The notes beneath the pieces were generated by a model that was given only the letters and a program-made list of their open reading frames with translations, did no database searches and was not told the DNA's origin. Below, piece after piece: positions 12,482 to 43,327 of a stretch of DNA of 64,000 nucleotides. How positions within the stretch are numbered: position 1 is the stretch's first letter; each line of letters opens with the position of its first letter. Made by a program: the position numbers and the translations under genes. Source of the stretch: Candidatus Omnitrophota bacterium. Lineage in GTDB: Bacteria > Omnitrophota > Gorgyraeia > Pluralincolimonadales > Pluralincolimonadaceae. The stretch spans positions 409,476 to 473,475 of the forward strand of contig JAQUPL010000001.1 of the NCBI GenBank assembly GCA_028716565.1, given 5' to 3'.

Positions 12482-13191
12482 TCCTCGGCAACCGGTTTTT
12501 TCATGAAATACATAAATCTCCTAAGCGGAGATTGGATCGCGCCCCTGCTTAGCCTCCATTTCTGAAAGTTTATAGAATCCAAATTTTTGAAAAATTTTTC
12601 ATAGTTACCGGGGATATCTCTTTTAATGCCGCTGACGGCTTTCCAGTCTCCCCCGGATAAGTCTGAAATGCCGGCTATCTGGCCTTTTTTGTTCACGAAA
12701 TAGACGCCGTTATAGACGTCAAAAACGGCCCACGTACCCCTTAAGTTCACGAACGACAAAGGTTTCCTCCCCTCCCCCGTTTCTGAATATACGTCATAAA
12801 AGAAGGAATTGACGTTTGCGTAGTTACAGAGGGTGGTAAAAACGTCCTGGAACTGGTCGTCGACCGCGTATCCCCTTATAATGATATGCCAGACATGATC
12901 GTCTATTATGGGTAATTCCTTCGGATTGTCCTTTAAGTTTGCGCGTGTCCATTCAAATATCTTCATCGCCTTATCTTCGTCGCTTTTGGCGCCCGAGACT
13001 ATCTTCTTCGCCAGGACCCCATAATTATAATGCCTGTCAAAGAAATCCAGTAATTTAAGATATAAAGGCAGCTTGACGGCATGGACTTTATAATTTACTC
13101 CCTGCAGGGTCGTGACCTCCAGGTTAAGGAGGAGCGCCGTTACGGCCAAAGCGGCGATACAGCCCAGCAACCCGTATCTGTATTTTTTCAT
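12478..13191 (-). CDS. hypothetical exported or membrane-anchored protein (last gene of the long minus-strand unit)
   Basis: N-terminal hydrophobic signal/anchor LLGCIAALAVTALLL; no confident family assignment. Confidence 0.45.
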   Translation of the reverse strand: MKKYRYGLLGCIAALAVTALLLNLEVTTLQGVNYKVHAVKLPLYLKLLDFFDRHYNYGVLAKKIVSGAKSDEDKAMKIFEWTRANLKDNPKELPIIDDHVWHIIIRGYAVDDQFQDVFTTLCNYANVNSFFYDVYSETGEGRKPLSFVNLRGTWAVFDVYNGVYFVNKKGQIAGISDLSGGDWKAVSGIKRDIPGNYEKFFKNLDSINFQKWRLSRGAIQSPLRRFMYFMKKPVAED

Positions 13192-28367: not shown

Positions 28368-29300
28368 TCATCCTTGGGCTGATTTCTTCATTAATTCCAG
28401 CCCTTCTTTTACGGTCAAAAGCTTTATCTTCAGTTCTCTTTCGATCTTGGCGGTGTTATAGCTCGTGTTGCTCGGACGAGGCGCCAAATCTTTGAATGCG
28501 GCGCTTGAAACGGAGCTGATGAGGGCGCGGTTTAACCCAAAGATATCCGCCACAAGAAGGGCAAACTCATACCGGTTCAAGATATCTTTCCCGGCTATAT
28601 GATAAAGCCCCTCCTTGCCCGATCTTATAAGGGCCCATATTATCTCGGCGCAACTGGTATTTAACAACGGATTTTCAAAGACATCGTTCACCATCTTCAC
28701 CCCTTCGCCGCGGCCAAGCTTCTGGATCAACCAGGTAACGGGATTAGACCGCTCATTTTTGTTATTCCAGCCATACATCAGTATCGGCCTGACGATGAGG
28801 TGCTTCAAGCCGCTCTCCCTGACGATCTTTTCCCCTTCCAGTTTCATCTCGCCGTATTTGTTGATGGGCGAGGGCTTATCGTCCTCCGAATAGGGGGCGG
28901 ACTTGCCGTCAAAAACCGCGTTTGTGGATATGAAGGCCATCTCCGAGCCGTATTCCCTGCATAATTCCGTAATGACCTGCGTGCCGAATACGTTTGAATT
29001 CCGGGCAACATCGTAATTTCGCTCGCAATAATCTACGCTTGCGGCGCCGGCCGTGTGTATGACGACCTGGGGCCTTGCCTTGTCAAAGAGACTGCGCATT
29101 TCGTCCTTTTTGCAGATATCGGCCTTATGGTAGGCGACATTTGCCCCGTCTTGCATGTTATAGGCGCCGATATAGGCGGCACCTATCTTGGCATCCCCGC
29201 CGGTCTCGATAAGCGCTTTTCCCAGCAATCCCGTGCCGCCGGTGATCAATATCCTGTTTTTTCCCATTATCCTTCCCTTAACCCGTACCATGCGTAACAT
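28368..29300 (-). CDS. dTDP-4-dehydrorhamnose reductase (RmlD)-like SDR
   Basis: ILITGGTGLLG, VVIHTAGAASVDYCE, NAVFDG...PYSEDD...NKYGEMK are RmlD-like. Probable true start MGKNRIL at about 29267. Confidence 0.6.
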   Translation of the reverse strand: MLRMVRVKGRIMGKNRILITGGTGLLGKALIETGGDAKIGAAYIGAYNMQDGANVAYHKADICKKDEMRSLFDKARPQVVIHTAGAASVDYCERNYDVARNSNVFGTQVITELCREYGSEMAFISTNAVFDGKSAPYSEDDKPSPINKYGEMKLEGEKIVRESGLKHLIVRPILMYGWNNKNERSNPVTWLIQKLGRGEGVKMVNDVFENPLLNTSCAEIIWALIRSGKEGLYHIAGKDILNRYEFALLVADIFGLNRALISSVSSAAFKDLAPRPSNTSYNTAKIERELKIKLLTVKEGLELMKKSAQG

Positions 29301-31005
29301 GCTTTAAGAAGACTAAATAATCCGGCGGGGAGAAAAATTCCTTAATATTAAATTCGGGGTACTCCTTAGTCCCAAGCGCGGCAACAAGCTTCTCCTTGAA
29401 ATCGTCCGCAAAAGAAACCTCTAAATAGTCCCTTATAAAATACTCGAGCCCCAAAGAAATACCCTCGGGGATGTAATACAGCGTTTTAACGCCCAGTGAG
29501 AGGGCTTCAAACACTACCGTTGACGCGGAGGTGACCAGCAAAAAACAATCCTCCAGCAGTCCACTCATGTCTTTTCCGGTAAATTCGCAATTTTCATATC
29601 CGGAGAACTCTTTGGCAAGTAAGACTGAGCCCCATGAATACGGGTGGGGCTTGATAAGGAACTTATATCCGTTGAATTCACCGCTAGCCAGGCACGCGAG
29701 GACCTGCCTTTGTAAAGATACTGTTACCTCGGGGAAAATAGGAAGGGCAACGACGATATTATTCGTCTTCCTCCCGTTACGGTCCTTGCCGCGAAGAAAG
29801 AGGTGCTGAAGCCGGGTAGCGCCGGCCTCCTCCACCCGGCAGGCCCTATAGCGATCTTTTAAAAAATCGAGCCACTTCTTCCCGGCAGCCAGTATCACCT
29901 CCGGCAGGGGCGCATCCTTCTCGAAAACCGAAACGTGGTAATCCAGCCAATTGACCGGAATCGTCATATGCTGGTAGGCGATCTTCTTTACCTTCTCACC
30001 GAAAGCAAGGTTGAGCATCTTCTCCCACGGCTGGTTCTCGAACGGATATATCATAGAAGTCCCCGGAGCCAGCTTTTTTGCAAGGTTCCTGTAACAGTAA
30101 TAATAGAAAAGGTACGCCTGGAAGCCGTTCGTCTCGTTCTCGTTCTTTTCTTCGTTCTTCAGGAGAAAATCCAGCAATTCCTTGTCTTTGATACCGCTGT
30201 CTTCGGAGGGCCCGCAGTCAATAGACATCCTGGTAAAGAATACGCGCAAAAAGTCTGCCAATCTTAAATATGGCAGGAGAAGCGCGATATCCTTAAAATT
30301 TTTTTTCAATTCAATCGCGTGTTTACGCTCTACAAAAAGCGGCGTTACCCTGAAGACACCACGGCCGTTCTTTCTTAAAAAACTTTCCAACCCCCCGAAG
30401 TATGGGTCATTGTACTCCGGAAGCCGCGAGAAGACCCTGTCGTCGATAAAGCTGTGCAGCAAGGTATCGCCGGCTTTAGGCCCGGCGGAAGTAAAGAACA
30501 ACCTGAAAAATAGCCAATGGAAAAATATGTCAAAGAACGCCCGGGCGCCCTTGATCTTTTTCAGGGCCGTCTTTAGATAGTCCGGAGCCACCGGCCCGCA
30601 GACCTCTGTATTCGGAAGCCGGAGCCGCTTAAGATTCGCCAAAAGCCGGATGTCGTCCGCCAAAAATACATGGCTGCCTTTGGAAGCCGCATAGGATCCT
30701 ATGAGCTTGATATATACATATTGGTGGAACATGGCCATCTGGGAAGTCGACTTAGATGCCACCCTGCTCGAATACCACAGTACCCTGTCCTTTTGGAGCG
30801 TCGAGACCTTTCCTATATAGTCGATGTAATTATCCCTGACCAGAGAGACAATCCGTTCTATCCCCTTGCCCACAAATACCCTTTTCTGCCTGCCGAGGAC
30901 GGCCTCGGCCGGGCAAGATCCTTTATCGACGCCCAGGTAAGACCAGGACAAGCCTTTTAATTTTTCTATATTACGTCTATCTTCCGGAAAGACAATGTAT
31001 ACCAT
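29278..31005 (-). CDS. hypothetical GT-B-like protein with KPHP motif (TagF/Glyphos_transf or KpsC/KpsS Capsule_synth-like)
   Basis: 575 aa. FLIKPHPYSWG followed by LLVTSASTVVFEALSLGVKT, the pattern shared by CDP-glycerol glycerophosphotransferases and capsule beta-Kdo transferases. Confidence 0.35.
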   Translation of the reverse strand: MVYIVFPEDRRNIEKLKGLSWSYLGVDKGSCPAEAVLGRQKRVFVGKGIERIVSLVRDNYIDYIGKVSTLQKDRVLWYSSRVASKSTSQMAMFHQYVYIKLIGSYAASKGSHVFLADDIRLLANLKRLRLPNTEVCGPVAPDYLKTALKKIKGARAFFDIFFHWLFFRLFFTSAGPKAGDTLLHSFIDDRVFSRLPEYNDPYFGGLESFLRKNGRGVFRVTPLFVERKHAIELKKNFKDIALLLPYLRLADFLRVFFTRMSIDCGPSEDSGIKDKELLDFLLKNEEKNENETNGFQAYLFYYYCYRNLAKKLAPGTSMIYPFENQPWEKMLNLAFGEKVKKIAYQHMTIPVNWLDYHVSVFEKDAPLPEVILAAGKKWLDFLKDRYRACRVEEAGATRLQHLFLRGKDRNGRKTNNIVVALPIFPEVTVSLQRQVLACLASGEFNGYKFLIKPHPYSWGSVLLAKEFSGYENCEFTGKDMSGLLEDCFLLVTSASTVVFEALSLGVKTLYYIPEGISLGLEYFIRDYLEVSFADDFKEKLVAALGTKEYPEFNIKEFFSPPDYLVFLKHVTHGTG

Positions 31006-31011
31006 TAAATA

Positions 31012-31653
31012 TTATAAGGATCCCAGGATAGAAGACAATCCGGACAGGTCGTTTATCTTCAGGCAATCTACCGCCGCGAAAATACCGGTATTGCCGTTTA
31101 TCCGCGCGATGAACCTGACGCCGTTATCTTTTGCCGCCGAATAATCGCTCATCGCGTCGCCGACGTACACCGCCTCGCCGGGCGATAACCGGTTTCCGCT
31201 TAAGATATCTTTTACGATGGCCGATTTCGATTTGGGCGCGCCGTAAATACCCGCAAAATACCGGGCCATCTTCCTCTTCTGCGCTATCTCTTCGATCTCC
31301 TCCTGCGGGGTAGCGGACGCGATAAAGCATTTGTATCCGGCGCTGTAAGCTTCAAGGAATTCCCTGCCGCCTTTGACATAAGGGGCGTTTACGACTTCTT
31401 CGAGGACAAGGCCGGAGAAACGCTCGCAGAGTTCCTTGAACCTGCGTTCCGTAAGCTCCTTCTTAAGGAGCGTCTTGTAAAAATATTTTATCTTATCGAA
31501 CCTTGATACGCCGGTATGCCTCACATGATAATCGACGACCTGCTTGACGATCTCAGGGCCTTCATCCTCAAACAGCCTGGCGAACGCGTTTGTCTTTATA
31601 TCGACCGATTCAACGAGGACGCCGTCGAAGTCGAATACTATCGCCTTAATCAC
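31012..31653 (-). CDS. HAD-superfamily hydrolase (subfamily IA phosphatase/phosphomutase-like)
   Basis: IVFDFDGVLVES motif I and VGDAMSDYSAAKDNG motif IV. Confidence 0.7.
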   Translation of the reverse strand: MIKAIVFDFDGVLVESVDIKTNAFARLFEDEGPEIVKQVVDYHVRHTGVSRFDKIKYFYKTLLKKELTERRFKELCERFSGLVLEEVVNAPYVKGGREFLEAYSAGYKCFIASATPQEEIEEIAQKRKMARYFAGIYGAPKSKSAIVKDILSGNRLSPGEAVYVGDAMSDYSAAKDNGVRFIARINGNTGIFAAVDCLKINDLSGLSSILGSL

Positions 31654-32311
31654 TAAAACCTCCTATGATAGTGCATGGCGCGCTGTCTGCTCCCTCAACC
31701 CTAAGCGGCGAGACCGTCGCTTCGGACAGGCCCTTTAGGTCGCACGATAAGTCCATATCTTCTATTATAAGGACGGGGTTGTTCTCGCCCTCCGGGTCCA
31801 GGAATGCCTTGTGGGCCTGCCTGCCGATAGGACGGGCGCAGAACGGGGAAACGGATATCCAGTCGATCCCCACGGCCCTTATGTTAGGCAGCTTCTTCCT
31901 TATATACATCCCCACGTCAGGGTGTATCCCCGGGTTCTCCTTGCAGTACAATTCCTTGTCCCTGTGCCTTGTCCAGCCGGACTTCAAAAGCAGGATGTCC
32001 TTCGACCCGTCTATCTTCTCCAGCCACTTGCCGGCGCTCAAAAGCTCCGAAGGGGCCAGCGTGACGTCAATGGCCTGGGGAGCCCTGAAGACCCAAAATT
32101 CGGGCGGATAATCCGCGGCCTTCTTCCCGGCCTCAAAAAAATGATTGGGCGCATCTACGTGGGTACCCCAATGGCTTCCCATCGAAAACCGGTAGATGTT
32201 AGCCGAGCCGCCCCCTGAGATAGAACCTGTCTTGGCCATATCGAGGGAGTGTCCGCCGCCGTACGCGGGCAATTTATCCGTTAAGAGATGGGATAAAAAC
32301 CTGTATATCAT
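31646..32311 (-). CDS. cyclase-family metal hydrolase (kynurenine formamidase-like, PF04199-type)
   Basis: SHWGTHVDAPNHF (HxGTHxDAPxH) motif. Confidence 0.6.
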   Translation of the reverse strand: MIYRFLSHLLTDKLPAYGGGHSLDMAKTGSISGGGSANIYRFSMGSHWGTHVDAPNHFFEAGKKAADYPPEFWVFRAPQAIDVTLAPSELLSAGKWLEKIDGSKDILLLKSGWTRHRDKELYCKENPGIHPDVGMYIRKKLPNIRAVGIDWISVSPFCARPIGRQAHKAFLDPEGENNPVLIIEDMDLSCDLKGLSEATVSPLRVEGADSAPCTIIGGFSD

Positions 32312-33225
32312 TTTCCGGCTTTCTTTTTAGCTGCTTTTACGGCATGATCCGCGCGCGGGCTGAATTGCTTGTGCATTTCATAAATGCTGTCCAGGATCCC
32401 CTGGCTCAGGTCGAGATAAGTCTTGCTCGCCAGCCTCTTGCCTATCCTGGGCTTAAACGAATAAGGCGTTATCTCGTAGTGGCCGCTCTCCCTCGGGGAC
32501 AGGAATTCGATATCTATCTTGTTATCGAACATCTCGCGTATCATGACGAGGAGGTCTTTTATCCTCATCTGCTGGTTCCCGGTGAGGATCACGTGCTGGT
32601 TGGAGAACTCCTTCGCGAGTATTTCAACACTTCCTTTGGAGGCGTCGAATACGTGTATATATTCCCTTAATTCTTCCCCGTCGCCGTACCGCCTTATCTT
32701 GCCTTCGGTCAGGGCCTCTCTTATTATCCTGTGGATGAAATTGCCTTTATCCGACCGCGGGCCGTAAAGGGACCCGTAACGCAGGATCGTATAGGGAAGG
32801 CCGTACACTTCGTGGTAGTCCTCGATCAAGAACTCGCATGCCTGTTTAGCGCTCCTGTAGAACGAACCGGCCTTGCTGTAGACGTAAAGGGAGCTGGCAA
32901 ATACGAACCTTTTGATGCCGGCTTTCCTTGCGGCTTCCAGCAGCACGGAATTGCCGAGTATATTGGCCTTCACGGTATCGATAGGCCGCTTGCTCGCTTC
33001 CTCTATGTCCGCAATTCCGGCAAAATTATAGACGACCTCGCACCCCTTCATGCTCTTTGACACCAATTCCTCGTCCAGCACGTCGCCTACGATCATCTTT
33101 TGCCCCTTCTTGAGATATTGTGAGCGGACAAGGTCATAAACTATGACATCGTGCCCGGCATCGGTCAGGGCGTCCGCCACATGACTGCCGAGGAATCCCG
33201 AACCGCCAAAGACTATGACTTTCAT
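32308..33225 (-). CDS. NAD-dependent epimerase/dehydratase (SDR)
   Basis: VFGGSGFLGSH Rossmann motif and YRSAK (YxxxK). Confidence 0.65.
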   Translation of the reverse strand: MKVIVFGGSGFLGSHVADALTDAGHDVIVYDLVRSQYLKKGQKMIVGDVLDEELVSKSMKGCEVVYNFAGIADIEEASKRPIDTVKANILGNSVLLEAARKAGIKRFVFASSLYVYSKAGSFYRSAKQACEFLIEDYHEVYGLPYTILRYGSLYGPRSDKGNFIHRIIREALTEGKIRRYGDGEELREYIHVFDASKGSVEILAKEFSNQHVILTGNQQMRIKDLLVMIREMFDNKIDIEFLSPRESGHYEITPYSFKPRIGKRLASKTYLDLSQGILDSIYEMHKQFSPRADHAVKAAKKKAGK

Positions 33226-34145
33226 TTAACGTCCTCCAGTCCTTTTAACAGATTCTTCACCGCTTCCACCTCCATCTGTATCCTTGCCTCCCTGGCATAA
33301 GAACCGATGTGCGGCGTAAGTATGACATTTTCCATCTCTTTTAAAGGCCCCTGGTAGGGCTCCTGCTCAAAGACATCCATTGCCGCCCCTGACAGGCTGC
33401 CGTCTTTCAAGGCGCGGCATAAGGCCGCTTCGTCGACCATTCCTCCGCGCGACACATTGACGACCCACGCAAGTTTCTTCATCTTCTTAAGCTCGTTCTC
33501 CCCCAGCAGGTATCCTTCTTTTGTCTTGGAGACGTGTATCAGAACTATATCGGACGTACTTAATAATTCGTCGAGCCCGGTCTTTTTGGCGCCTGCGGCC
33601 GGCTGCCCGGCGGCATCCTTTATGTCATAATATGACAATTCGCATTTAAACGGGCCCAATAACTCCGCCACTTTCCTTCCTATGCGGCCAAAACCGATTA
33701 TGCCGACCCGTTTCCCGCTCAGGAGGCTTCCCATCCTTTTTTTCCATTTCCCGCCGCGGATCTCCCTGTCCATCTGGGACGTCCTTCTCAACAGGCTTAA
33801 CAATAATCCCACGGTAAGCTCAGCCACGGCGAGCGTCGGGGCGTCGGGCGTATTAAAGACGCGTATGCCTAACTCCGCGGCTGCCTTCAGGTCCACATTA
33901 TCCATCCCGGCTCCGCAGCGTGATATGACTTTAAGGCCGGGAAGGCGGGCCAAGTTATCCCTGTCGAGCGGCTCGGTCCCGGCGACGATGCCTACCGCAC
34001 CCGAAGCGAGCTTGGCTATCTCGTCTTTTGCCAGGCTCCTGCCGTTCGTGTTCAGGCCGGCCTCATAACCTGCCTCTTTGAGCAGGTCAAGCGGCGCGCG
34101 GTCAAATTCCCCAAAACTCGATGTCGAAATAAATATTTTTTTCAT
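33222..34145 (-). CDS. D-isomer-specific 2-hydroxyacid dehydrogenase (phosphoglycerate dehydrogenase-like)
   Basis: VGIIGFGRIGRKVAELL NAD-binding motif and a conserved R/E/H catalytic-region layout. Confidence 0.75.
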   Translation of the reverse strand: MKKIFISTSSFGEFDRAPLDLLKEAGYEAGLNTNGRSLAKDEIAKLASGAVGIVAGTEPLDRDNLARLPGLKVISRCGAGMDNVDLKAAAELGIRVFNTPDAPTLAVAELTVGLLLSLLRRTSQMDREIRGGKWKKRMGSLLSGKRVGIIGFGRIGRKVAELLGPFKCELSYYDIKDAAGQPAAGAKKTGLDELLSTSDIVLIHVSKTKEGYLLGENELKKMKKLAWVVNVSRGGMVDEAALCRALKDGSLSGAAMDVFEQEPYQGPLKEMENVILTPHIGSYAREARIQMEVEAVKNLLKGLEDVK

Positions 34146-34155
34146 GGGCTCCTCG

Positions 34156-35649
34156 TTAGAAATACTTCTTTTGGTATTCTTCGCTCAATTTCTTGAATAT
34201 CGCTTCGCTTCCCGGTTCAAGATTCTCAACTTTTTCGATATCAGGCCACATCGCTTCCGGGAACTTCACATAGAGACAGAATGTCTTGAGGAGCTGGTTG
34301 AGGCGCTCCTTTGTAATATTCTTGTTCTTTATGACACTATTCTGCAGGAGCGAGGCATTCGTGACAGAGCGGTCGATAAGGCCGTCCTTTACGCAAAGGT
34401 CATATAATCTCGTCCCGGTATAGGGATAGAATATGAAAACGCTCACCGTATCCGACCTTACCTTCCTGTTCAATCTTATGGTGTCAAAGATGAGTTCGCG
34501 CGTCTCATAGGGGAACCCTATGATATTGTTGACGCTCAGGGGGACGCCCACTTTATTGATGGTCTCGGTGGCCCTGATAAATTGATCGTTGGTAAAGTTC
34601 TTCCTTATTATCTTTCTCCTGAATTCCTCGTTGCCGTGTTCGAGCCCGACGGTGATACGGTCGCAGCCGCAATCCTTAAGCAGCCGCACCTTATCTTCGC
34701 TTATCGTCTCCACCCGCGACTGGCACCAGAAAGGAAGGCCGACCTCGTCCCTTATCCTCGACATCAACTTCACTAATACATCATCTCGGAGCGTCAGGAA
34801 AGTGTCGCTGTTAAAATAAAGGTACTCGAGACGGTATTTTTCCGCCATCTCTTTCATCTCTTCGATTATCTTCCCGGGGTCCTTCTTCCTGAAATAGCAT
34901 CCGCCGTTCTGCTCCCGGTACCAGTTCCGGTAAGCGGGCGAGGCACAAAAACTGCAGTCATAAGGGCATCCCCTGTCAAAGTCTACAGGCAGCATCCTGT
35001 ACATCTTTCCCTGCATGGGGCTGTGCAGCCTCTTTGGGTCAAAAAGCGAATAGTCGGGGGTAGGCAGCTTGTCCAGGTCGACCAGCGGCCTGACCTTGTT
35101 CTTGACGACCTCGCTGCCGCGCCTAAAGCATAAGTTTTGGACGTCCGAGTGATCCAGGCCGTTTTGCATCCTTTCGCATAATTCCACCAAAGCGCCTTCG
35201 CCTTCGCCGAGGCAGATGGAATCTATCTCCTTATTCTCAAACGCCTTCTCCTTGAGGTAAGAGATATAAATGCCGCCGAAGATGGTCGGCGGCCTGTCCT
35301 TACCCAACGATCCTATCAGCCTTAAAGCTAGCGGCATCGTGTCTTCCACGACCGTAACGCCTATCAGGTCGGGCTTGAATTCAGCGACCTTTTTTTTGAA
35401 ATCTTCGGTAACATCCGTTTTTTTGATGGATATCCCGTAATCCTGGGCGTCATAGCTCCTTACCTGCAGGTACGACTTCCGGATCTCGTCCGGGTTCTCC
35501 ATGTCGGTGCAGTAATATGTGGTATCGAACAACCCGACTTCAAAACCCTTCTGCTTAAGGCAAGCCGTGAGCAGCCCTATGGACGGGGGAAGCAGGTTCT
35601 TCATCATCATGTTCGGATATACCAACAGCGCTTTTATGTTATTCTTCAT
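34156..35649 (-). CDS. B12-binding (class B) radical SAM protein
   Basis: RGCPYDCSFCASPAY and an N-terminal B12-binding-like domain. Confidence 0.75.
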   Translation of the reverse strand: MKNNIKALLVYPNMMMKNLLPPSIGLLTACLKQKGFEVGLFDTTYYCTDMENPDEIRKSYLQVRSYDAQDYGISIKKTDVTEDFKKKVAEFKPDLIGVTVVEDTMPLALRLIGSLGKDRPPTIFGGIYISYLKEKAFENKEIDSICLGEGEGALVELCERMQNGLDHSDVQNLCFRRGSEVVKNKVRPLVDLDKLPTPDYSLFDPKRLHSPMQGKMYRMLPVDFDRGCPYDCSFCASPAYRNWYREQNGGCYFRKKDPGKIIEEMKEMAEKYRLEYLYFNSDTFLTLRDDVLVKLMSRIRDEVGLPFWCQSRVETISEDKVRLLKDCGCDRITVGLEHGNEEFRRKIIRKNFTNDQFIRATETINKVGVPLSVNNIIGFPYETRELIFDTIRLNRKVRSDTVSVFIFYPYTGTRLYDLCVKDGLIDRSVTNASLLQNSVIKNKNITKERLNQLLKTFCLYVKFPEAMWPDIEKVENLEPGSEAIFKKLSEEYQKKYF

Positions 35650-36461
35650 TTTCCAGGCTTCCGATCCGGGGATCCCTTGGCGGTAAACGCTTCTTTAATT
35701 ACCTTGTAAATCTGTCCGTGTCCTAATCCGGTGTAATGGACGCCGTCGTAGGAAAGTTTTTCGGGCCTATAAGCGGCCCCCTCAAAAGGATAGAGATATT
35801 CGATCCTGCCGCTCATCCCGCAGATTCCGGCTAAAAATCTGTTAGAATCTTTCAGTTTTGTAAAAAACTCTTTCGGCCGATTCCTTTTGATCTTTATTCC
35901 CTGGCTTACTTCTAACGTGCCCATGAGTATCGCGTTTCCCGAATGGCGTTCGATGCAATCCGCTATCTCCTTCTTGAACCTCTCCCGGTTAAAATCTATG
36001 GAGTAGAGATCCTTGATTTCGCCGTTCGATAGCAGGTATTTGCTTAATCTTTCAACCCGGAACCGCGCTTTTTTAAAATAGACGGCCTTTTGGTCCAGTA
36101 TATCGTTTATTATTTCAATCTTTTTCGGAGTAAAGTCGACGAGCCCGATCTCGGTGATCAAATGCTTAAAATAGAGTTTGTTCGACTCCAGGAAATTTAC
36201 CAGCGTCAAAAAGACCGTGCATTCCTTGGGACGGACCACAAGCATTACTGACATCTTCTTGTCCTTAAAATAACGGAACATCCTCATGCTCCAGCTGTCA
36301 TTGATAGATTTGATGTTGGAGCTCCTTGAATCGGAAAATATCAATACGTCTATCGCGCCTTTTTTCGGAAGGTTGCAGCATTTGAATACAAAGTCCCTGT
36401 TCGGGTTATCCCTGCCCGGCCCGAATTTCAGTCCTGCCTGTTTTTTCCCGCTTCTCGCCAT
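35646..36461 (-). CDS. SGNH/GDSL-type hydrolase-like protein
   Basis: DVLIFSDSRS near the N-terminus and DGVHYT (DxxH) near the C-terminus fit the SGNH blocks I and V. Confidence 0.4.
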   Translation of the reverse strand: MARSGKKQAGLKFGPGRDNPNRDFVFKCCNLPKKGAIDVLIFSDSRSSNIKSINDSWSMRMFRYFKDKKMSVMLVVRPKECTVFLTLVNFLESNKLYFKHLITEIGLVDFTPKKIEIINDILDQKAVYFKKARFRVERLSKYLLSNGEIKDLYSIDFNRERFKKEIADCIERHSGNAILMGTLEVSQGIKIKRNRPKEFFTKLKDSNRFLAGICGMSGRIEYLYPFEGAAYRPEKLSYDGVHYTGLGHGQIYKVIKEAFTAKGSPDRKPGK

Positions 36462-36471
36462 TTCCGGTATC

Positions 36472-37089
36472 TCAGCCCCTGCAATCCGCCTTTATTACCT
36501 TTGCGGGAACCCCGCAAGCCAGGGCCCCCGGCGGTATATCGCGGTTCACGACTGCGCCGGCGCCTATGACGGCTCCTTTACCTATCGTCACATTGCGCAG
36601 CACGACCGCATTTGCGCCTATCCAGACATCATCCTCCACGACTATCCTGCCTCCGGTATGGCCTTGTTTGTTGATAGGGATATCCTTGCGTCCGTATATG
36701 TGGTTGCTCGCGCGAATGACGACATTCGGCCCGATCGCCACGTTGTCGCCCAGGATTATTTCGCCGTCGTTTGCGGCCCCTATTATCACGTTGCTGTTCA
36801 TGTTGACCCCGTTGCCGATCTTGATGGTCCCGTTATCATTGGCATAAAGGCAGCAGTTGTGCATTATATTCACGCGATCGCCCATAGTGATGCCTTTCGG
36901 GTTCGTGACCCTGCAGCCGTATGAGATAATGAAGGAACGGCACCGGAGGAATTGCGGCGACCAGTATAAGCGCCGCGCCAATATCCCTATCCTTCCCGGA
37001 AGATAAGCGATAAACAACCTCTCGAACCACTCCCTGCACTCGGCGACCACCGTTCCTGCGGCGCGTTTCATGTTTCCTATCAAGCTCAT
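36472..37089 (-). CDS. hexapeptide-repeat (left-handed beta-helix) sugar O/N-acetyltransferase (WcaF/WbbJ-like)
   Basis: Tandem hexapeptide repeats IGNGVNMNSNVIIGAANDGEIILGDNVAIGPNVVI...IGANAVV. Confidence 0.7.
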   Translation of the reverse strand: MSLIGNMKRAAGTVVAECREWFERLFIAYLPGRIGILARRLYWSPQFLRCRSFIISYGCRVTNPKGITMGDRVNIMHNCCLYANDNGTIKIGNGVNMNSNVIIGAANDGEIILGDNVAIGPNVVIRASNHIYGRKDIPINKQGHTGGRIVVEDDVWIGANAVVLRNVTIGKGAVIGAGAVVNRDIPPGALACGVPAKVIKADCRG

Positions 37090-38078
37090 GACAAGGGCCC
37101 TTTCTTCCTGGCTATTATCCGCATATGGGAACTGAGATCGTTACTTGCGATCCAATCCTGCAACCCTTCCTTGCACACGTCAGTGCCGGAACGCGCTACC
37201 ATCTCCCATAGCCTGCCGGCTTTTACGCCTTCATCCTTTATCATCCCTTCGACTATATCCCAGTCAAGCTTGCCCGGCGTCGAGACCTCTTCCGCCTCGA
37301 AACCGATCCTCTCCATCAAATATCTCAATGAATGGGGATTAAAGAAATTAAGGTGGTGGGGCGGCGAAATACTCTTTGACTTTTCCCATAACAGCAGTAT
37401 GTCAAAGCCCATCCCGTTCAAGGTGGTCGCGAACAGCCGTCCGCCCGGCTTCAAGAGCGAGTGGGCCTTCTTGAAAAAGGAAAACGGGTCATGCAGGTGC
37501 TCGGCCAGTTCAAAAATGCTGAGCACATCGAATGAGCCGTCCAGGCCGGTTATATCTTCCATGCATGCGCATTCCACCTCAAGGCCGTTCTTTTTGCAGA
37601 TATCGGCCATTTCCAATGACGGCTCTACCGCAATATACTTGTTCCCGGAGGCAATATCCCTCAATTCTTCAAGGAAGATCCCGAACCCGGCCCCTATGTC
37701 CCCTATGACAAGCTCCCCGCTTTTACCGAGCATCTTGGCCAGATATTCCGCCCTCGGCCTGAATATCTTTTCCCTCCTGGCCGCGGCTACCGGCTTAAAG
37801 AACTCGTTTACCCAATAACTCGTCGAAGGCGAGTTTGAGTAAAATTCCTTCAATTTATTGAACGGCGGCCTCGGATTCACGAACAGGGTTGAACATTTCT
37901 TGCATGACACATACTTAAAACCCGCCTTTTCAAACTCGAAGGTGTGCTCTGCGCCGCCGCAGGACGGGCACCCGGCCGCGGCAAACGAAGCCGGGTCAAA
38001 GAATTCCCGCGCGTCTTTTTCGACCAACTCGAGATACTTATTGAATGTACTGCGTTTTCTTATATCGTTTTCTTTCAT
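37086..38078 (-). CDS. SAM-dependent methyltransferase with N-terminal Cys4 zinc ribbon (sugar C/O-methyltransferase-like)
   Basis: CPSCGG...CKKCS zinc ribbon, then IGDIGAGFGIF motif I. Confidence 0.6.
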   Translation of the reverse strand: MKENDIRKRSTFNKYLELVEKDAREFFDPASFAAAGCPSCGGAEHTFEFEKAGFKYVSCKKCSTLFVNPRPPFNKLKEFYSNSPSTSYWVNEFFKPVAAARREKIFRPRAEYLAKMLGKSGELVIGDIGAGFGIFLEELRDIASGNKYIAVEPSLEMADICKKNGLEVECACMEDITGLDGSFDVLSIFELAEHLHDPFSFFKKAHSLLKPGGRLFATTLNGMGFDILLLWEKSKSISPPHHLNFFNPHSLRYLMERIGFEAEEVSTPGKLDWDIVEGMIKDEGVKAGRLWEMVARSGTDVCKEGLQDWIASNDLSSHMRIIARKKGPLS

Positions 38079-38088
38079 GGTATCCCGC

Positions 38089-38874
38089 CTAACGGTATCC
38101 CTTCATCAAACGGTCCTTAAGCATCAGGTTCTCGACCTTGCGGAGGTCTTCTTCGGTATCCACGCTGTATGTGTCGTATTTCGTCCGGACCATCTTTACC
38201 TTATAGCCGTGCTCCAGGACCCTGAGCATGTCTACGGATTCCACGACCTCAAGCGGCGTCATCTTCAGCTTATTGAACTTGATGAGGAAATCCCTCCTGA
38301 AAGGGATTATGCAGACCTGCTTATACATCGGGACCTCCTTTGCGCCTTTCTTCCAGGACGGGATAGGCTCACGCGAAAAATACAGGGCCGAACCTTCCAG
38401 GTCCGTCACTACTTTTACCGCATTGGGGTCTCCCTGCTCTTCCTGCGATTTCAGGGGCGCCATAAGGTTGACTATCTGGACGTCCTTATCCTTCAACATC
38501 GGCCTTATCGATTCCTGGATCATCTCGGGATAGATCATGGGCTCATCGCCCTGTATCATGACCACTATGTCCAGCCTCTTTCCGGTCTTCTTCTCTATCT
38601 TCAGCATCGCTTCAGCTGCCCTGTCGGATGCGCGCTCGTGCGTATCTTTGGTCATGACCGCATTCATGCCGTTTTTTTCGCAATACTCCTTTATCTCCTC
38701 ATCGCATGTGGCGATATATACGTCCTTAAGGGACTTCGCCAGCTTACTCCTTAGGTATACATGGCCCACCATCGGGATGCCGCAGATCCCGGCCATCGGT
38801 TTCCCCGGAAAGCGCGATGATGCCATGCGGGCCGGGATGATGCCTGCGATATTGATACTATGTTTTTTGTTCAC
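38089..38874 (-). CDS. kdsB: 3-deoxy-manno-octulosonate cytidylyltransferase (KdsB, CMP-Kdo synthetase) family
   Basis: IIPARMASSRFPGKPM, VVMIQGDEPMI, NAVKVVTDLEGSALYFSREPIP and LRVLEHG track KdsB closely. Confidence 0.7.
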   Translation of the reverse strand: MNKKHSINIAGIIPARMASSRFPGKPMAGICGIPMVGHVYLRSKLAKSLKDVYIATCDEEIKEYCEKNGMNAVMTKDTHERASDRAAEAMLKIEKKTGKRLDIVVMIQGDEPMIYPEMIQESIRPMLKDKDVQIVNLMAPLKSQEEQGDPNAVKVVTDLEGSALYFSREPIPSWKKGAKEVPMYKQVCIIPFRRDFLIKFNKLKMTPLEVVESVDMLRVLEHGYKVKMVRTKYDTYSVDTEEDLRKVENLMLKDRLMKGYR

Positions 38875-39626
38875 CTCAGCTCTCCTGTCACTTCAAGGCA
38901 TTTCCTGCCGAGATACAGGGAATCCAGCCCTACCGCCAGGAATTTATAACCTTTTTGCTTCAATTCCTTTGCCCTTTTTATATCCGGCTCTACCACATGG
39001 AATCCCATCGGCTTCTTCATCTTCCTGCAGACATCCTCATAACGCTTGATCGCTTTTTTGACTTCGGGCCTGTCAAATCGACCGGGATACCCAAGCGAAC
39101 CGGATAGGTCATACGGCCCTATTATCGAGCCGTCGATCCCGTCAACGGCAAGGATCTCCTCCAGGTTATCAACGCTTTCTATGTGTTCTACTTGGGCTAT
39201 GATTATGCTTTTCTCTCGCAGCCATTTCTTGTAACGCTCGAACCCAAAACCGTACCCCTGGGCCCTTGCCAGTCCTACGCCCCTTGTCCCTTTCGGCGGA
39301 TAATTCACCGCCTTTACCGCCGCCTCGGCGTCAAACCTCGTATTTACCATCGGGACTACCACGCCGTGGGCGCCCGCGTCCATCACTCTTTTTATAAGGC
39401 ATGGGTCATTTTCCCCTACCCGGACAAGAGGGACGACCCCGGACAACTCAATGGTCCGGATCAATTCCTGCGCCTCAGGCAAAGTCATGGCGGAGTGCTC
39501 CATATCCACAACAAGCCAGTCGAAGCCCGCCCTTGCCATTATCTCGGCGACGGCGGTATCCCCGATAGTAATCCAGGAACCTACGCTGTATTCATTCCTT
39601 CCCAATTTCTTTTTCAGGTCAACCAT
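38871..39626 (-). CDS. HpcH/HpaI-family class II (metal-dependent) pyruvate aldolase
   Basis: 251 aa (beta/alpha)8 protein with the DWLVVDMEHS, AHGVVVPMV and IAQVEHIESVDNLEEI family signatures. Overlaps the kdsB-like start by 4 nt. Confidence 0.7.
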   Translation of the reverse strand: MVDLKKKLGRNEYSVGSWITIGDTAVAEIMARAGFDWLVVDMEHSAMTLPEAQELIRTIELSGVVPLVRVGENDPCLIKRVMDAGAHGVVVPMVNTRFDAEAAVKAVNYPPKGTRGVGLARAQGYGFGFERYKKWLREKSIIIAQVEHIESVDNLEEILAVDGIDGSIIGPYDLSGSLGYPGRFDRPEVKKAIKRYEDVCRKMKKPMGFHVVEPDIKRAKELKQKGYKFLAVGLDSLYLGRKCLEVTGELR

Positions 39627-41445
39627 TATCGCCTCCCTCTGATTTTTGCCTCGCTATCCTTTTGAATGCCTCGGATCCTTTGGAGAGGTCCGAAAAAGTC
39701 CCTTCATCGACGATTTTCCCGCCGTCAATGACATAAATATGGTCGGCGTGCTCAAGCGTATGCAGCCGGTGCGTAACTATGATGACCGTCATCTTCCTTC
39801 CGAGGTTTTTCAGCGCATTATATACCTTCTCCTCGGTATTGCCGTCCAGCGCCGATGTGGCCTCGTCGAGGACCAGTATCTCCGGGTCCCTGTAGAGCGC
39901 CCTCGCGATGCCTATCCGCTGCTTTTGGCCTCCCGATATCCGCACACCTTTTTCGCCGACATGGGTATCGACCCCTGCGGGCAATTCTTTCACAAAATCT
40001 TCGAGCTGGGAGACCCTGATGACCTGCCGCAGCTTCTCAGCATCGACCTTTTCAGCGGGGACCCCGAATGCGATATTGGACGAGATACTCTCATCGGTAA
40101 GGAATATATTCTGGGGGATATACCCTATCGACCGGCGGTATTGCAGCATATTGCCCTTGTCAAGCGCCTGGTCCCGGTAAAAGATTTTGCCCTGGTCCGC
40201 GCCCAACAGGCCTACAATTATATCTACCAGGGTGCTCTTTCCCGCGCCTGTCTCGCCTGCAATAGCTACCGTGCTGCCCAGTGGGATGGAAATATTCAGG
40301 CCTTTAAAGATGGGCTGGGCCGCGGCCTTGTAGCGGAACGTGACATCATCCAGCCGCAAGGTCCTGGCTCCCGGCCCGGCACGCAGGGCCCTGCTACCGG
40401 CAGGCGCTGCCTCCAAATCTTCGATCTCATCCTTGAGTATTTCATGCACTATATTCAAACTGTTGAAACCGTATTGGAGATAGCTGATGCTTGAATATAT
40501 CTTGGTAAATGACGGAAGGAGCCTTAACGCTGCCACCGCGAGGACAACTAACACCGGTATTACCTCTGCGGGCGTCCTATGCATGTACGAACTGGCCAAT
40601 ATCATGGAAAGTATAAAAGCGAACAATATGAGTTCGAATATGTAACGCGGCAACCCCGAAAGGACCGAGAACTTCACGAACCCGTCCGCATATTTCCTGG
40701 TCACGTCATAATATTTTGATATGAAAAACTGCTGGGCGTTATAAAGTTTTATTTCCTTGATCGCGCCTAAAGATTCTAAAGCCACCTTGAACATCTTTCC
40801 GTTGAATAACTCCCGCTGGCTCGCATACCCATTTATGCGCTTTTTGAAAAAAATGTTCACCCATATGGCAACGATACCCACTACGGAAACAAGTATTACC
40901 ATCAACAGCGGATACAGGGCTAATAAGAACAGGGATATGCCTATGATTATTATGCTCTCCGAGACCACCGAGACGACCGGGTTCAGGAAATAATATACGA
41001 CGTTCGAGACCTCGGTGGAGACGTTCTTAAAGAGTGCGGCTGAATTGCTGTCGAGATAAAATGCGTAAGGTTTGGTCAAATATGCCCTTAAGGTCTCACT
41101 GCTAAGGCGGGAATATATGACTCCCATTACCTTCTGCTGATAGTAGAGCATTGCAGCCGAGTAAAGCGACTTAAATAAGAATATCAGGAATGCTGCGGCG
41201 ACCAGGATGGTAAGGAAAGACACTTCGTCCTTCGCGCCTGACATGACATAAAGGTCCGACAGTATCTTTGAAGAGTGTATCTTCTCCGGCGCAAGGAAGA
41301 GCCCCAGCACAGGGATCAGGATCCCTATGCTGAATATCTCCGATACCGATAATACGCACGCGCCGAGAGACAAGCCTAAAAGCTTCAGCTTCTCGCCCTT
41401 GGTCAGCATCCCCCTTATCTTAGTCAACGATCCTGTCTTTGGCAT
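39619..41445 (-). CDS. ABC transporter, fused permease/ATPase (MsbA/PglK-like exporter)
   Basis: N-terminal 6-TM domain, Walker A GETGAGKST, signature LSGGQKQR and Walker B ILVLDEATSALD. Confidence 0.8.
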   Translation of the reverse strand: MPKTGSLTKIRGMLTKGEKLKLLGLSLGACVLSVSEIFSIGILIPVLGLFLAPEKIHSSKILSDLYVMSGAKDEVSFLTILVAAAFLIFLFKSLYSAAMLYYQQKVMGVIYSRLSSETLRAYLTKPYAFYLDSNSAALFKNVSTEVSNVVYYFLNPVVSVVSESIIIIGISLFLLALYPLLMVILVSVVGIVAIWVNIFFKKRINGYASQRELFNGKMFKVALESLGAIKEIKLYNAQQFFISKYYDVTRKYADGFVKFSVLSGLPRYIFELILFAFILSMILASSYMHRTPAEVIPVLVVLAVAALRLLPSFTKIYSSISYLQYGFNSLNIVHEILKDEIEDLEAAPAGSRALRAGPGARTLRLDDVTFRYKAAAQPIFKGLNISIPLGSTVAIAGETGAGKSTLVDIIVGLLGADQGKIFYRDQALDKGNMLQYRRSIGYIPQNIFLTDESISSNIAFGVPAEKVDAEKLRQVIRVSQLEDFVKELPAGVDTHVGEKGVRISGGQKQRIGIARALYRDPEILVLDEATSALDGNTEEKVYNALKNLGRKMTVIIVTHRLHTLEHADHIYVIDGGKIVDEGTFSDLSKGSEAFKRIARQKSEGGDNG

Positions 41446-41464: not shown

Positions 41465-43327
41465 TTAATTGCGTAGGTATTCGATTATCCTGCTGCCGGC
41501 ATTCCCGTCGAGTTTCCCCATGTATTTGGCCGCGTGTTTCCCGAGGAAATCCTCCAGGAACCGGTTAAGATCTTCAGGGTCATCCAGGTTTTTCATTATG
41601 ATATCCATCAGCTCTTTCCCGGTTGACACCCTTAACACCTCTTCTCCGTTGATCCCGTTTAGCGGCGGGAGCAGGGTTTCGGGGTTGAAATAAGGCTCGA
41701 GGAAGACTGTCGGCACGCCCGCCGCCTGCGCTTCATAAAAACAGCTGGTTACGTTGGAGACAACCAGGTCCATGTCGTACACGACCCTGGAGAAAGGCGT
41801 GTCTTCAATATATACGAACTTCGATGTATCCACCTTGAAAAAATCAAAAAGATATTCAAAATACTTTTTTTCATAACCCGGATGGGGCTTGAAATAGACC
41901 TTCACATTACGGGAATTGAGCTCGCCGAATATAGAGAAGATCTCCTCGTAATACTTTTCCTGGTATGCGAACCGGTCCAAGTGGCTGTAAAAACCGTCCT
42001 CAAAGCTCAGGAACATTACGTTCCTGATCGAACTTACGTGCTTGACCTTGTCGGGGGTATAAATATCCAAAGACGGGTTTCCCAGCGCAACGTACCGGCT
42101 CGTGCCCGTGCCCTGCGAACGGTAGTAACCGGTAAAGAATTCTCCGGAACAGATGACCAGGTCGGACCTGCCCCTGTCGCATACTTTTTGGGCGTGGTTG
42201 CTCCCCTGGATACCGTGGTCTACCCATACTGACATGATGCCTGCCGACCTGCATGCGGCAATGACCGCCTGGAATTGTTCGTCGATCTCTTCAAATATTA
42301 TCATCTTCGAGATACCGAACTGCCTTACCGCTTTTCTCACCTTTCCCGCATACTCCATCAAACCGGGTATCACGCTGCGCACCAGGTCCTTGACCGCGGG
42401 GTAATATAAGAAACGGTAGTCTATGCCGTTGAATACAAAAAAGCCGTCGAGATATGCTCCTGCCCCTTCAACCAGGTATTTATTTTCGATCGACTCCAGA
42501 AATCTTCTTTCATCTTTATCAAGATTATATGAAACATCGTCGAACTGGAGAAAACGCGGATTCAGGAAACGGCGCGGGTTTAATACGTTCGAGCCGGACC
42601 CGCTAACTATGAACTTATCCGTCATGTGTTCCAGGATGCTGTTTATATTAAAATAGGAAAAGAAATATATGTTACCGCGTGACCCGGTTAGCGCGCTAAT
42701 GAGCGCGCTAACTTCTATCAACATGCCTTTTACGGCATCCTTTAGGCCGCGTACCAGAGTCTTACGGCTGCCTGCCTGCTTAAAAGATACGCATAGGGAC
42801 GGGATGTGAGTGGCCGGGACGATCGGGACGCATTCGCGTTCCAACTGCCTGCACACCTGCTCGACAAGGCGCACTTTATTAAAGAACCTTCCCTTGTCAT
42901 CGCCGCGAAGATAGAAACTGTTACTTGAAACAGAAAGGTCAAAGTAGACCTTTTGCGCTTCCGGCCAGCGCCTTATCGCTTTCCGGACGGCTTCACCGTA
43001 CTTCAGCAAGACCGTTAACATGTATTTCCGTGAAAATGTGATCCTTGCCATATCCCCGTAAGATATCCCCCCGTAGACGGAATGGTCTGTTCCGTCCCTC
43101 CGATACCAATCAAGCGCGAAATGGTCCGTGGCCGAATGGAGCGACTTATAATCAGCCGGGGTGAACAGGTCTTCGATAAAATAAAAAATATGCTTCCCGC
43201 CTTCTCTCTTCAGGCGCAGGTAGGCCAGGTAGTTGAAGCAGACCGTCACGTCGCTGCCCTCACGATATGCTGCGGACCCTTTGAAGGAATCTAGGGTGCG
43301 GTCATTTTCGACAAGGAACAAGTTCAT
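41465..43327 (-). CDS. hypothetical GT-B-like protein with KPHP motif (TagF or KpsC/KpsS-like), paralogous in layout to 29278..31005
   Basis: 620 aa. VYFKPHPGYEKKY followed by LVVSNVTSCFYEAQAAGVPTVFL. Confidence 0.35.
   Translation of the reverse strand: MNLFLVENDRTLDSFKGSAAYREGSDVTVCFNYLAYLRLKREGGKHIFYFIEDLFTPADYKSLHSATDHFALDWYRRDGTDHSVYGGISYGDMARITFSRKYMLTVLLKYGEAVRKAIRRWPEAQKVYFDLSVSSNSFYLRGDDKGRFFNKVRLVEQVCRQLERECVPIVPATHIPSLCVSFKQAGSRKTLVRGLKDAVKGMLIEVSALISALTGSRGNIYFFSYFNINSILEHMTDKFIVSGSGSNVLNPRRFLNPRFLQFDDVSYNLDKDERRFLESIENKYLVEGAGAYLDGFFVFNGIDYRFLYYPAVKDLVRSVIPGLMEYAGKVRKAVRQFGISKMIIFEEIDEQFQAVIAACRSAGIMSVWVDHGIQGSNHAQKVCDRGRSDLVICSGEFFTGYYRSQGTGTSRYVALGNPSLDIYTPDKVKHVSSIRNVMFLSFEDGFYSHLDRFAYQEKYYEEIFSIFGELNSRNVKVYFKPHPGYEKKYFEYLFDFFKVDTSKFVYIEDTPFSRVVYDMDLVVSNVTSCFYEAQAAGVPTVFLEPYFNPETLLPPLNGINGEEVLRVSTGKELMDIIMKNLDDPEDLNRFLEDFLGKHAAKYMGKLDGNAGSRIIEYLRN

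Follow-up and report, generated by a model that had tools for sequence, protein, structure and literature searches.

In a 64-kb stretch of DNA from a Candidatus Omnitrophota bacterium (contig JAQUPL010000001.1; the whole stretch is called the window in the following), a gene located between those of a hexapeptide acetyltransferase and a B12-binding radical SAM enzyme encodes a protein of 271 amino acids (aa). This protein belongs to an uncharacterised family and does have the SGNH esterase/acyltransferase fold, albeit in a highly divergent form. We tentatively read it as a cytoplasmic, stand-alone O-acyltransferase acting on an ulosonic-type sugar activated with cytidine monophosphate (CMP), or on a lipid-linked unit; removal of acyl groups appears less likely. 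An earlier inspection of the DNA (the original prediction) had described three open reading frames at this place, all of which were found, on the minus strand (Table 1). It had also named an overlap of 4 nucleotides (nt), which is formed by the TGA stop of the 271-aa frame and the ATG start of the radical SAM gene in a common ATGA (35649..35646). The stop of the acetyltransferase gene lies 10 nt upstream of the start of the 271-aa frame, and its own start overlaps the stop of the upstream methyltransferase gene, again via ATGA. The three genes are adjacent as described; the order in which they had been listed is not that of transcription, which runs from the acetyltransferase gene via the SGNH-like gene to the radical SAM gene. 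Tightly packed genes on the minus strand cover almost the whole window.

The 271-aa protein displays no Pfam match even at E≤1 and no NCBIfam match at E≤0.01, and sequence-profile searches against the PDB returned SGNH matches below threshold only. A word-indexed search of 5.8 billion proteins retrieved eight relatives, none of them named and one identical, the latter from a Candidatus Omnitrophica metagenome-assembled genome. Exhaustive profile searching yielded 175 clusters at 50% identity (E≤1e-3), and a second profile search added approximately 100 more distant members from Bacteroidota, Campylobacterota, Vibrio and Escherichia, a few of which bear names assigned automatically, e.g. 'SGNH/GDSL hydrolase family protein'. 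When genome contigs were searched with a profile of a narrow alignment, two loci only were obtained. Nearly all of the 156 family proteins of sufficient length keep DS[RK] near residue 45 and DxxH near residues 239–242. Ser45, Thr82, Arg195, Asp239 and His242 are invariant in two independent alignments (101 and 99 sequences), and nearly invariant in the same alignments are Asp44, Arg/Lys46, Gly47, Gly106, Val108, Asp109, Pro112, Lys/Arg113 and Pro196. The two blocks singled out by the original prediction, FSDSRS (Asp44-Ser45-Arg46) and DGVHYT (Asp239 to His242), are thus real and not a product of chance, with Ser45, Asp239 and His242 retained in all aligned relatives. Neither a transmembrane segment nor a signal peptide is predicted for the 271-aa protein (maximum KD19 1.36), and hence it works in the cytoplasm. 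As a basic protein (isoelectric point, pI, 9.8), it probably holds anionic ligands via Arg46, Lys/Arg113 and Arg195.

The fold was addressed by structure prediction, as had been proposed for confirming an SGNH fold and a catalytic Ser/Asp/His. An AlphaFold model based on an alignment of eight sequences was mediocre (predicted local distance difference test, pLDDT, 72), and its Foldseek matches were mostly SGNH proteins but weak. It was replaced by a model based on an alignment of 99 sequences (pLDDT 90.6, predicted TM-score 0.89), which gives the fold with confidence. The secondary structure elements of this model follow the order b1-aA-b2-aB-b3-aC-b4-aD-b5-aE, an alpha/beta/alpha arrangement with a five-stranded parallel sheet. 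Ser45 is located immediately behind strand 1, and Asp239 and His242 immediately ahead of the last helix (residues 245–261), which are the positions of SGNH blocks I and V. Comparison with the PDB by Foldseek displays 51 matches at E≤1e-3 (E 9e-7 to 1e-3), nearly all of them SGNH proteins: PAF-AH, TesA, GDSL esterases, acetyl-xylan esterases, sialate O-acetylesterase, and the C-terminal O-acetyltransferase domain of OatA. TM-scores reach 0.69 if normalised to the target, and 0.4–0.5 if normalised to the query. Alignment by hhalign with P0251, a GDSL relative that is itself Pfam-positive, gives a probability of 96.8–97.5%, with Asp44-Ser45 placed on GDS and DGVH on DGIH. As the Pfam, NCBIfam and PDB profiles produced no significant match, the link to SGNH proteins rests on the fold comparison and on P0251 as a bridging protein. 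The original prediction had named the absence of an SGNH fold or of a catalytic triad as its refutation; the predicted fold and the triad residues are both present, and it withstood this check. The predicted fold and the conservation lend good support to a mechanism via acyl-Ser45; they do not lend it to a particular direction of the reaction.

The SGNH family is named for a serine in block I, a glycine after strand 2 (block II), an asparagine in the GxND motif after strand 3 (block III), and a histidine in the DxxH motif of block V (PMC4510713, PMC5697884). In the 271-aa family, Asp44-Ser45 of block I is present, and the glycine ahead of the aspartate is swapped for serine, alanine or threonine. 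No conserved glycine is found in residues 76–84 of the family alignments, i.e. in block II; the loop contains Arg77-Pro78 in the close group and Cys-Pro in the distant group, and the invariant Thr82. Block III reads Gly106-x-Val108-Asp109 (GxVD), with valine in 96 of 101 and in 99 of 99 sequences, respectively. Two positions ahead of Gly106 stands a polar residue (in the family Asn, Gln or His, in the window Glu) that might compensate for the asparagine of block III. Block V is complete, with the invariant Asp239 and His242 right before the last helix. The glycine and the asparagine are both missing from CASD1 and other PC-esterases, which are O-acetyltransferases (PMC4510713), O-acetyltransferases of the AlgX type lack the asparagine of block III, and the oxyanion hole of OatA is non-canonical (PMC5697884). 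In isolation, CASD1's SGNH-like domain forms an acetyl-serine intermediate and prefers CMP-N-acetylneuraminic acid (CMP-Neu5Ac) as acceptor (PMC4510713). With both residues lacking, a transferase is favoured no less than a hydrolase, and this signature, common to transferases of the CASD1 type, is a reason for us to prefer transfer.

Gene neighbourhoods were examined at 15 distinct loci, including the window and counting L002 and L003 as one locus; the locus of Escherichia coli O130 (L016) was considered in addition. In the close clade (42–78% identity), the same cassette occurs in six of six loci (the window, L009, L001, L002/L003, L004 and L007). Its order is HpcH/HpaI aldolase, KdsB-like cytidylyltransferase (CTP_transf_3), Zn-ribbon methyltransferase, SGNH-like gene, B12-radical SAM enzyme, 2-hydroxyacid dehydrogenase, SDR, cyclase-fold hydrolase and HAD phosphatase, and the methyltransferase gene is kept directly upstream of the SGNH-like gene. 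Orthologs of the cassette genes in the farther loci of the clade are 48–74% identical. A methyltransferase of the FkbM type comes next after the SGNH-like gene in L001 and L004, the SDR, cyclase and HAD genes are reordered in L002, and the contig of L007 ends within the SGNH-like gene. The acetyltransferase adjoins the SGNH-like gene only in the window and in the 78%-identical L009; it is absent at that position in L001, L002/L003, L004 and L007, and among twelve loci compared a homolog was found in L009 alone.

More distant relatives (15–25% identity) have neither a radical SAM gene nor a Zn-ribbon methyltransferase at their loci, and no acetyltransferase beside the SGNH-like gene; a small Hexapep gene occurs 4–6 kb downstream in L011 and L013 only, and an FkbM-type methyltransferase in L014. 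In Aliarcobacter skirrowii (L010; 1962–7780) and the metagenomic contig L012 (1–7744), the genes for aldolase, dehydrogenase, SDR and HAD phosphatase have orthologs at 37–51% identity, except for the dehydrogenase of L012 (25%). L010 additionally carries the cyclase (36%) and a CTP_transf_3 gene, and L012 a gene of the 6-phosphogluconolactonase family in place of the cyclase. Downstream of the SGNH-like gene, both have either a flippase-like gene or an unassigned one of approximately 400 aa, and then a PF01973 (Maf/WaaZ-like) transferase. A reduced module without the aldolase is found in four loci of the Bacteroidota type, L011, L013, L014 and L015 (Larkinella, Mucilaginibacter, Emticicia and a metagenome). 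It consists of CTP_transf_3, 2-Hacid_dh, adh_short, the SGNH-like gene, a protein of approximately 470 aa without Pfam match, a PF01973 (MptE/Maf/WaaZ-like) transferase, and GT2; in L011 and L014, the SGNH-like gene is preceded by a polymerase gene. In Escherichia albertii, Vibrio cholerae and E. coli O130 (L005, L006 and L016), the SGNH-like gene is located between a flippase (wzx) and a cytidine diphosphate (CDP)-glycerol glycerophosphotransferase. The copy of E. coli O130 (L016 7990–8790, NZ_CP027462.1) is listed in RefSeq as 'hypothetical protein'.

Of the 15 loci, 11 have a CTP_transf_3 gene, an ortholog from the module, or the two together, and L006 has a TagD-like cytidylyltransferase instead. 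The partners shared across phyla are CTP_transf_3, 2-hydroxyacid dehydrogenase and SDR (again 11 of 15 loci), together with the HpcH aldolase in 8 loci and, usually, the cyclase and HAD genes. The common context of the family is therefore a glycan cluster using a cytidine-activated anionic building block, and not an acetyltransferase or a radical SAM gene. The idea of an acetyltransferase/esterase pair as a conserved unit was rejected, since the acetyltransferase is lineage-specific, and an obligate partnership of the SGNH-like enzyme with a B12-radical SAM enzyme was rejected at the family level, since the distant relatives have no radical SAM gene. What the original prediction had suggested, namely O-acyl chemistry on the sugar that undergoes the radical modification, is still plausible in this genome. 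The functional coupling with the two neighbours is weaker than it had proposed: it is specific to a clade or lineage, and a pair of acetyltransferase and esterase does not define the family.

These data suggest a possible mechanism for the 271-aa protein, in which we infer the substrate, the identity of the sugar, and transfer instead of hydrolysis as the direction, whereas the fold, the invariance of the triad residues, the location in the cytoplasm and the synteny are shown. Ser45 would take an acyl group from acetyl-coenzyme A (CoA) or another acyl-CoA in a ping-pong reaction, His242 acting as the base, paired with Asp239. Ser45 would then hand the acyl group on to a hydroxyl, located either on the CMP-activated acid sugar or on its lipid-linked carrier unit, and Arg46, Lys/Arg113 and Arg195 could hold the phosphate and carboxylate groups. 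Besides the missing glycine and asparagine, transfer is favoured because loci without an acetyltransferase leave a dedicated esterase no ester to remove: no acetyltransferase was found in the flanks examined of at least nine loci (L001, L002, L004, L005, L006, L010, L012, L014 and L015), nor in those of L016. In distant relatives, the gene is located one gene upstream of a PF01973 transferase, or else immediately upstream of a CDP-glycerol glycerophosphotransferase. Several points weigh against an acyltransferase. SGNH proteins are mostly hydrolases, and so are the top structural matches of the 271-aa protein. The conventional hexapeptide acetyltransferase directly upstream fits a pair that acetylates and de-acetylates at least as well. 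The family member of Candidatus Thiovulum karukerense (L008 9926–10678), 31% identical, is located outside glycan clusters, with FeoB, a PAS-HD regulator and DapB as neighbours. Finally, the protein of the window contains Ser47 and Glu104, and hence it may act differently from other family members.

The original prediction had left room for acyl removal, and an O-acetylesterase resembling the C-terminal domain of NeuA, which would trim the esters put on the free or CMP-activated acid sugar by the NeuD/WbbJ-like hexapeptide acetyltransferase and thereby set the level of O-acetylation, is possible, if somewhat unlikely. PAF-AH (E 2–4e-6) and the sialate O-acetylesterases of Bacteroides and Phocaeicola rank among the top structural matches. 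An interplay of the acetyltransferase NeuD and the cytidylyltransferase-esterase NeuA on CMP-sialic acid is documented (PMC8319020) and provides a precedent. The acetyltransferase, SGNH-like and CTP_transf_3 genes are found within 2.5 kb in the window and are translationally coupled, and the small Hexapep genes downstream in L011 and L013 are in line with such a pair. However, the SGNH-like gene is kept in the loci without an acetyltransferase in the flanks examined, the canonical glycine and asparagine of the oxyanion hole are missing across the whole family, and the protein is never fused to a cytidylyltransferase, as it is in NeuA.

The divergence of the window copy bears on the same question. 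The SGNH-like proteins of the window and of L009 (10001–10801) are 77% identical, while the flanking cassette genes reach 89–98.5%. The nonsynonymous and synonymous substitution rates (dN 0.12, dS 0.55) give a dN/dS of 0.22, from which it follows that the gene is functional and under purifying selection. The low identity with respect to the flanks suggests either allelic replacement or accelerated evolution. The window and L009 alone have a serine at the otherwise 92–98% conserved Gly47, and a glutamate at position 104 (Asn, Gln or His in the family), two residues before the glycine of block III; these are the same only two genomes with an adjacent acetyltransferase. These differences may reflect a functional shift, or an allelic replacement, linked to the arrival of the acetyltransferase. 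Taken for the esterase, the coincidence of G47S, N104E and faster divergence with the gain of the acetyltransferase could mark a move to hydrolysis.

A biosynthetic hydrolase involved in making the acid sugar, by opening a lactone, releasing a thioester, or, in the Omnitrophota clade, taking off a transient carboxyl methyl ester that the adjacent methyltransferase had put on around the radical SAM step (the logic of BioC/BioH), appears improbable. The gene does lie amid sugar-synthesis genes: in L010 it comes right behind the HAD phosphatase, and in the six close loci it has the methyltransferase gene on one side and the radical SAM gene on the other; the weak BioC-like match of the methyltransferase (1.3e-8) and the 6-phosphogluconolactonase-family gene of L012, which hints at lactone chemistry, point in the same direction. 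Methyl-ester removal cannot be the function of the family, since the methyltransferase and the radical SAM gene are missing in all distant loci. Furthermore, the copies of E. coli O130, E. albertii and V. cholerae accompany a glycerophosphotransferase without any acid-sugar pathway, and those of Bacteroidota are found on the assembly side, beside flippase-like, polymerase or transferase genes.

An enzyme directed at the nucleotide, either a cytidylyltransferase or a hydrolase that would take off CMP once the radical SAM enzyme has acted, in the manner of FomD following Fom3, is very improbable: the UniRef name of the E. albertii homolog ('Predicted glycerol-3-phosphate cytidylyltransferase'), the consistent company of CMP- and CDP-dependent steps, the many conserved basic residues, and the precedent of a B12-radical SAM methylase with a cytidylylated substrate that is hydrolysed later (PMC8158854) speak for it, but the fold and the Ser/Asp/His residues are those of acyl-serine enzymes and not of nucleotidyltransferases or the unrelated FomD, V. 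cholerae has its own TagD-like gene alongside, a CMP-sugar must remain activated for use by a transferase, and the database name was apparently assigned by elimination rather than by test.

The remaining genes of the cassette (Table 1) are consistent with the synthesis and modification of an acid sugar. No paper on this cassette was found in literature searches.

Table 1. Genes of the cassette and its borders in the window, with the evidence for each assignment.
Feature	Coordinates	Strand	Evidence
575-aa protein without firm family	29278..31005	-	Weak DUF6716 'putative glycosyltransferase' match, E 0.003
HAD-family phosphatase	31012..31653	-	NCBIfam HAD-IA matches
Cyclase/kynurenine-formamidase-fold metal hydrolase	31646..32311	-	Pfam Cyclase 1.2e-19
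Extended SDR, epimerase/dehydratase type	32308..33225	-	Pfam Epimerase 2e-44
D-2-hydroxyacid dehydrogenase, PGDH/glyoxylate reductase-like	33222..34145	-	Pfam 2-Hacid_dh_C 2.2e-54
B12-binding radical SAM enzyme, 497 aa	34156..35649	-	Pfam Radical_SAM 7.7e-25, B12-binding 6.3e-13
SGNH-fold protein of unnamed family, 271 aa, pI 9.8	35646..36461	-	Predicted structure, conserved motifs
Hexapeptide (left-handed beta-helix) acetyltransferase, 205 aa, WbbJ/LacA-like	36472..37089	-	Pfam Hexapep PF00132 7.9e-15
Zn-ribbon and class I SAM methyltransferase (Methyltransf_23)	37086..38078	-	Pfam
KdsB-like CMP-ulosonate synthetase (CTP_transf_3)	38089..38874	-	Pfam 5e-47; NCBIfam NF009905 308 bits vs cut-off 255
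HpcH/HpaI class II pyruvate aldolase	38871..39626	-	Pfam 3.6e-39
ABC exporter, fused transmembrane and ATPase domains, cassette head	39619..41445	-	Pfam ABC_tran, ABC_membrane
620-aa protein without firm family	41465..43327	-	Weak PF07388 alpha-2,8-polysialyltransferase match, E 0.007

The ABC exporter gene at the head of the cassette is syntenic in L001, L007 and L009. The aldolase is HpaI/GarL/RhmA-like in NCBIfam, under the equivalog cut-offs, and its orthologs are 49–51% identical even in Aliarcobacter skirrowii and L012. The KdsB-like gene is syntenic with 62–70% identity in L001–L004 and L007, and with 98% in L009. For the Zn-ribbon methyltransferase, also syntenic in these loci, the values are 58–69% and 94%, respectively. 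The 2-hydroxyacid dehydrogenase was found in all module-bearing loci with a downstream flank, L007 stopping inside the SGNH-like gene. SDR and HAD phosphatase orthologs are present in L001–L004, L009, L010 and L012, those of the cyclase in L001, L004, L009 and L010, with a distant cyclase (23%) in L002. Among the loci compared, the 575-aa protein has an ortholog in L009 only; it may be a candidate glycosyltransferase for the cassette product, and the 620-aa protein a candidate sialyltransferase-like enzyme, both on weak profile matches. The 205-aa acetyltransferase is WbbJ/LacA/WcaF-like and is located under all NCBIfam equivalog cut-offs (best match WbbJ, 82 bits vs 243).

The radical SAM enzyme of 497 aa contains CPYDCSFC (CxxxCxxC) at residue 228 and matches PF02310 with 49 bits (cut-off 32) and PF04055 with 88 bits. 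No NCBIfam equivalog is reached (HpnJ 118 bits vs 578, BchE 112 vs 481). Its unnamed relatives number more than 2800, among them a close set of approximately 10 ortholog clusters at 62–70% identity, and orthologs in the same cassette of L001, L002 and L004 are 65–69% identical. It is a class B radical SAM enzyme, its gene translationally coupled to the SGNH-like one, and, by analogy, a probable C-methylase of the putative acid sugar. The original prediction had counted it as the fourth B12-radical SAM gene of the region, which agrees with three others at 9755–11260, 21045–22436 and 22441–23913. Each of these contains CxxxCxxC and is 23–37% identical to the 497-aa enzyme; as they are only 23–37% identical mutually, they are not recent duplicates. 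The genes at 21045–22436 and 22441–23913 adjoin each other, class I methyltransferases, and membrane glycosyltransferases of the PMT_2 type.

The cytidylyltransferase/2-hydroxyacid dehydrogenase/SDR module probably makes a CMP-activated acid sugar. Aldolases of the HpaI/GarL/RhmA type combine pyruvate and an aldehyde to 4-hydroxy-2-oxo acids. In the pathway we propose, the HpcH aldolase would form a 2-keto-3-deoxy (ulosonic or ulosaric) acid from pyruvate and an aldehyde, and the KdsB-like enzyme would activate this acid as a CMP-ketoside. Preparing the aldehyde or tailoring the product would fall to the dehydrogenase, SDR, cyclase-fold hydrolase and HAD phosphatase, and the 575-aa and 620-aa proteins are candidates for the transfer step. 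In the version found in Omnitrophota, the B12-radical SAM enzyme would C-methylate and the methyltransferase O-methylate the same sugar; both methylations are suggested by the analogy with class B methylases. In its widest form, the scheme is a NeuB-independent HpcH route to a CMP-acid sugar, methylated by the radical SAM and SAM-dependent enzymes, with a cytoplasmic CASD1-like acyltransferase acting on CMP- and CDP-activated donors. We consider this form unlikely as a whole. Acylation of such donors prior to their transfer to the glycan would explain the company of both CMP-acid-sugar modules and CDP-glycerol glycerophosphotransferases.

Some observations concern the rest of the window. The part from 41465 to 63542, the upstream half of the island and located beside the cassette, resembles a nonulosonic acid pathway of the pseudaminic/legionaminic type. 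It comprises NeuB, a PseG-like GT28 domain, GNATs, a PIG-L deacetylase, a formyltransferase, a second CTP_transf_3, a DegT aminotransferase, an amidase, a HisH/HisF-like pair, and two asparagine-synthase-like amidotransferases. Two proteins of approximately 375 aa (44673–45824 and 56042–57154) belong to no Pfam family and give only faint PP-loop/QueC/NAD-synthase-like signals (E 0.09–0.3); they may serve the nonulosonic acid pathway as ATP-dependent amidating enzymes. The sole sizeable plus-strand gene of the window encodes a GT4 glycosyltransferase (11351–12481). It converges on a minus-strand gene (12478–13191) for a protein of 237 aa with a weak match to the transglutaminase core.

With this analysis, a family without Pfam entry (approximately 175 clusters at 50% identity) gains a name and a testable catalytic hypothesis. 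It takes in the 'hypothetical protein' of surface-polysaccharide loci of E. coli O130, E. albertii and V. cholerae, and a conserved uncharacterised module is flagged in Omnitrophota, Campylobacterota and Bacteroidota, often with HpcH aldolase, cyclase and HAD genes. If the acylation of activated donors is true, it would constitute a third route of glycan O-acylation, cytoplasmic and independent of membranes, beside the hexapeptide and the AT3/MBOAT-SGNH systems. If the protein is merely an esterase or an ordinary O-acetyltransferase, the result is the routine annotation of a divergent family.

Compared with the SGNH/GDSL superfamily (TesA, the alpha subunits of PAF-AH, GDSL esterases, CE3), the 271-aa protein shares the fold, the serine after strand 1, and the DxxH motif. 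It differs by the lack of Pfam and NCBIfam matches (e.g. PF00657, PF13472), of the block II glycine, and of the block III asparagine, as well as by an arginine after the serine, Thr82, Arg195-Pro196 and T/S-P-K/R (111–113) as family features, and by an extra beta-hairpin at residues 135–156. The C-terminal domain of OatA and PatB are among its matches by structure and, below threshold, by sequence profile. Unlike the 271-aa protein, they are extracytoplasmic, need a membrane partner that translocates the acyl group, and keep the asparagine of block III (PMC5697884). No AT3 or MBOAT gene adjoins the SGNH-like gene in the window.

The C-terminal esterase domain of NeuA together with NeuD (E. coli K1, group B Streptococcus) is alike in being cytoplasmic, SGNH/PAF-AH-like and accompanied by CTP_transf_3 and a hexapeptide acetyltransferase, and all three gene types neighbour each other in the window. 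In contrast to NeuA, the SGNH-like gene is separate, two genes downstream of the KdsB-like gene, and unfused in 15 of 15 loci; in contrast to the NeuA/NeuD system, the acetyltransferase is missing in most relatives, and the sugar would be made by the HpcH aldolase cassette and not by the NeuB route. Like CASD1 and the PC-esterases (PF13839), the 271-aa protein keeps the GDS-type serine and DxxH and has lost the glycine and asparagine, and its gene is located in clusters for CMP-acid sugars. It has no PF13839 match, however, and is a bacterial, cytoplasmic and stand-alone protein, whereas in CASD1 the domain faces the lumen and is joined to a multi-pass membrane domain. The 497-aa enzyme resembles Fom3 and other class B radical SAM methylases in its B12-binding and radical SAM domains and in the location of its gene beside a cytidylyltransferase, and Fom3 indeed methylates a cytidylylated substrate (PMC8158854). 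The similarity to Fom3 is only remote, and the presumed substrate is a sugar acid, while that of Fom3 is a phosphonate. Against the background of these systems, the 271-aa protein represents a new, unnamed family with a known fold and a known catalytic type, a putative, uncharacterised enzyme of sugar decoration rather than a system of a new kind.

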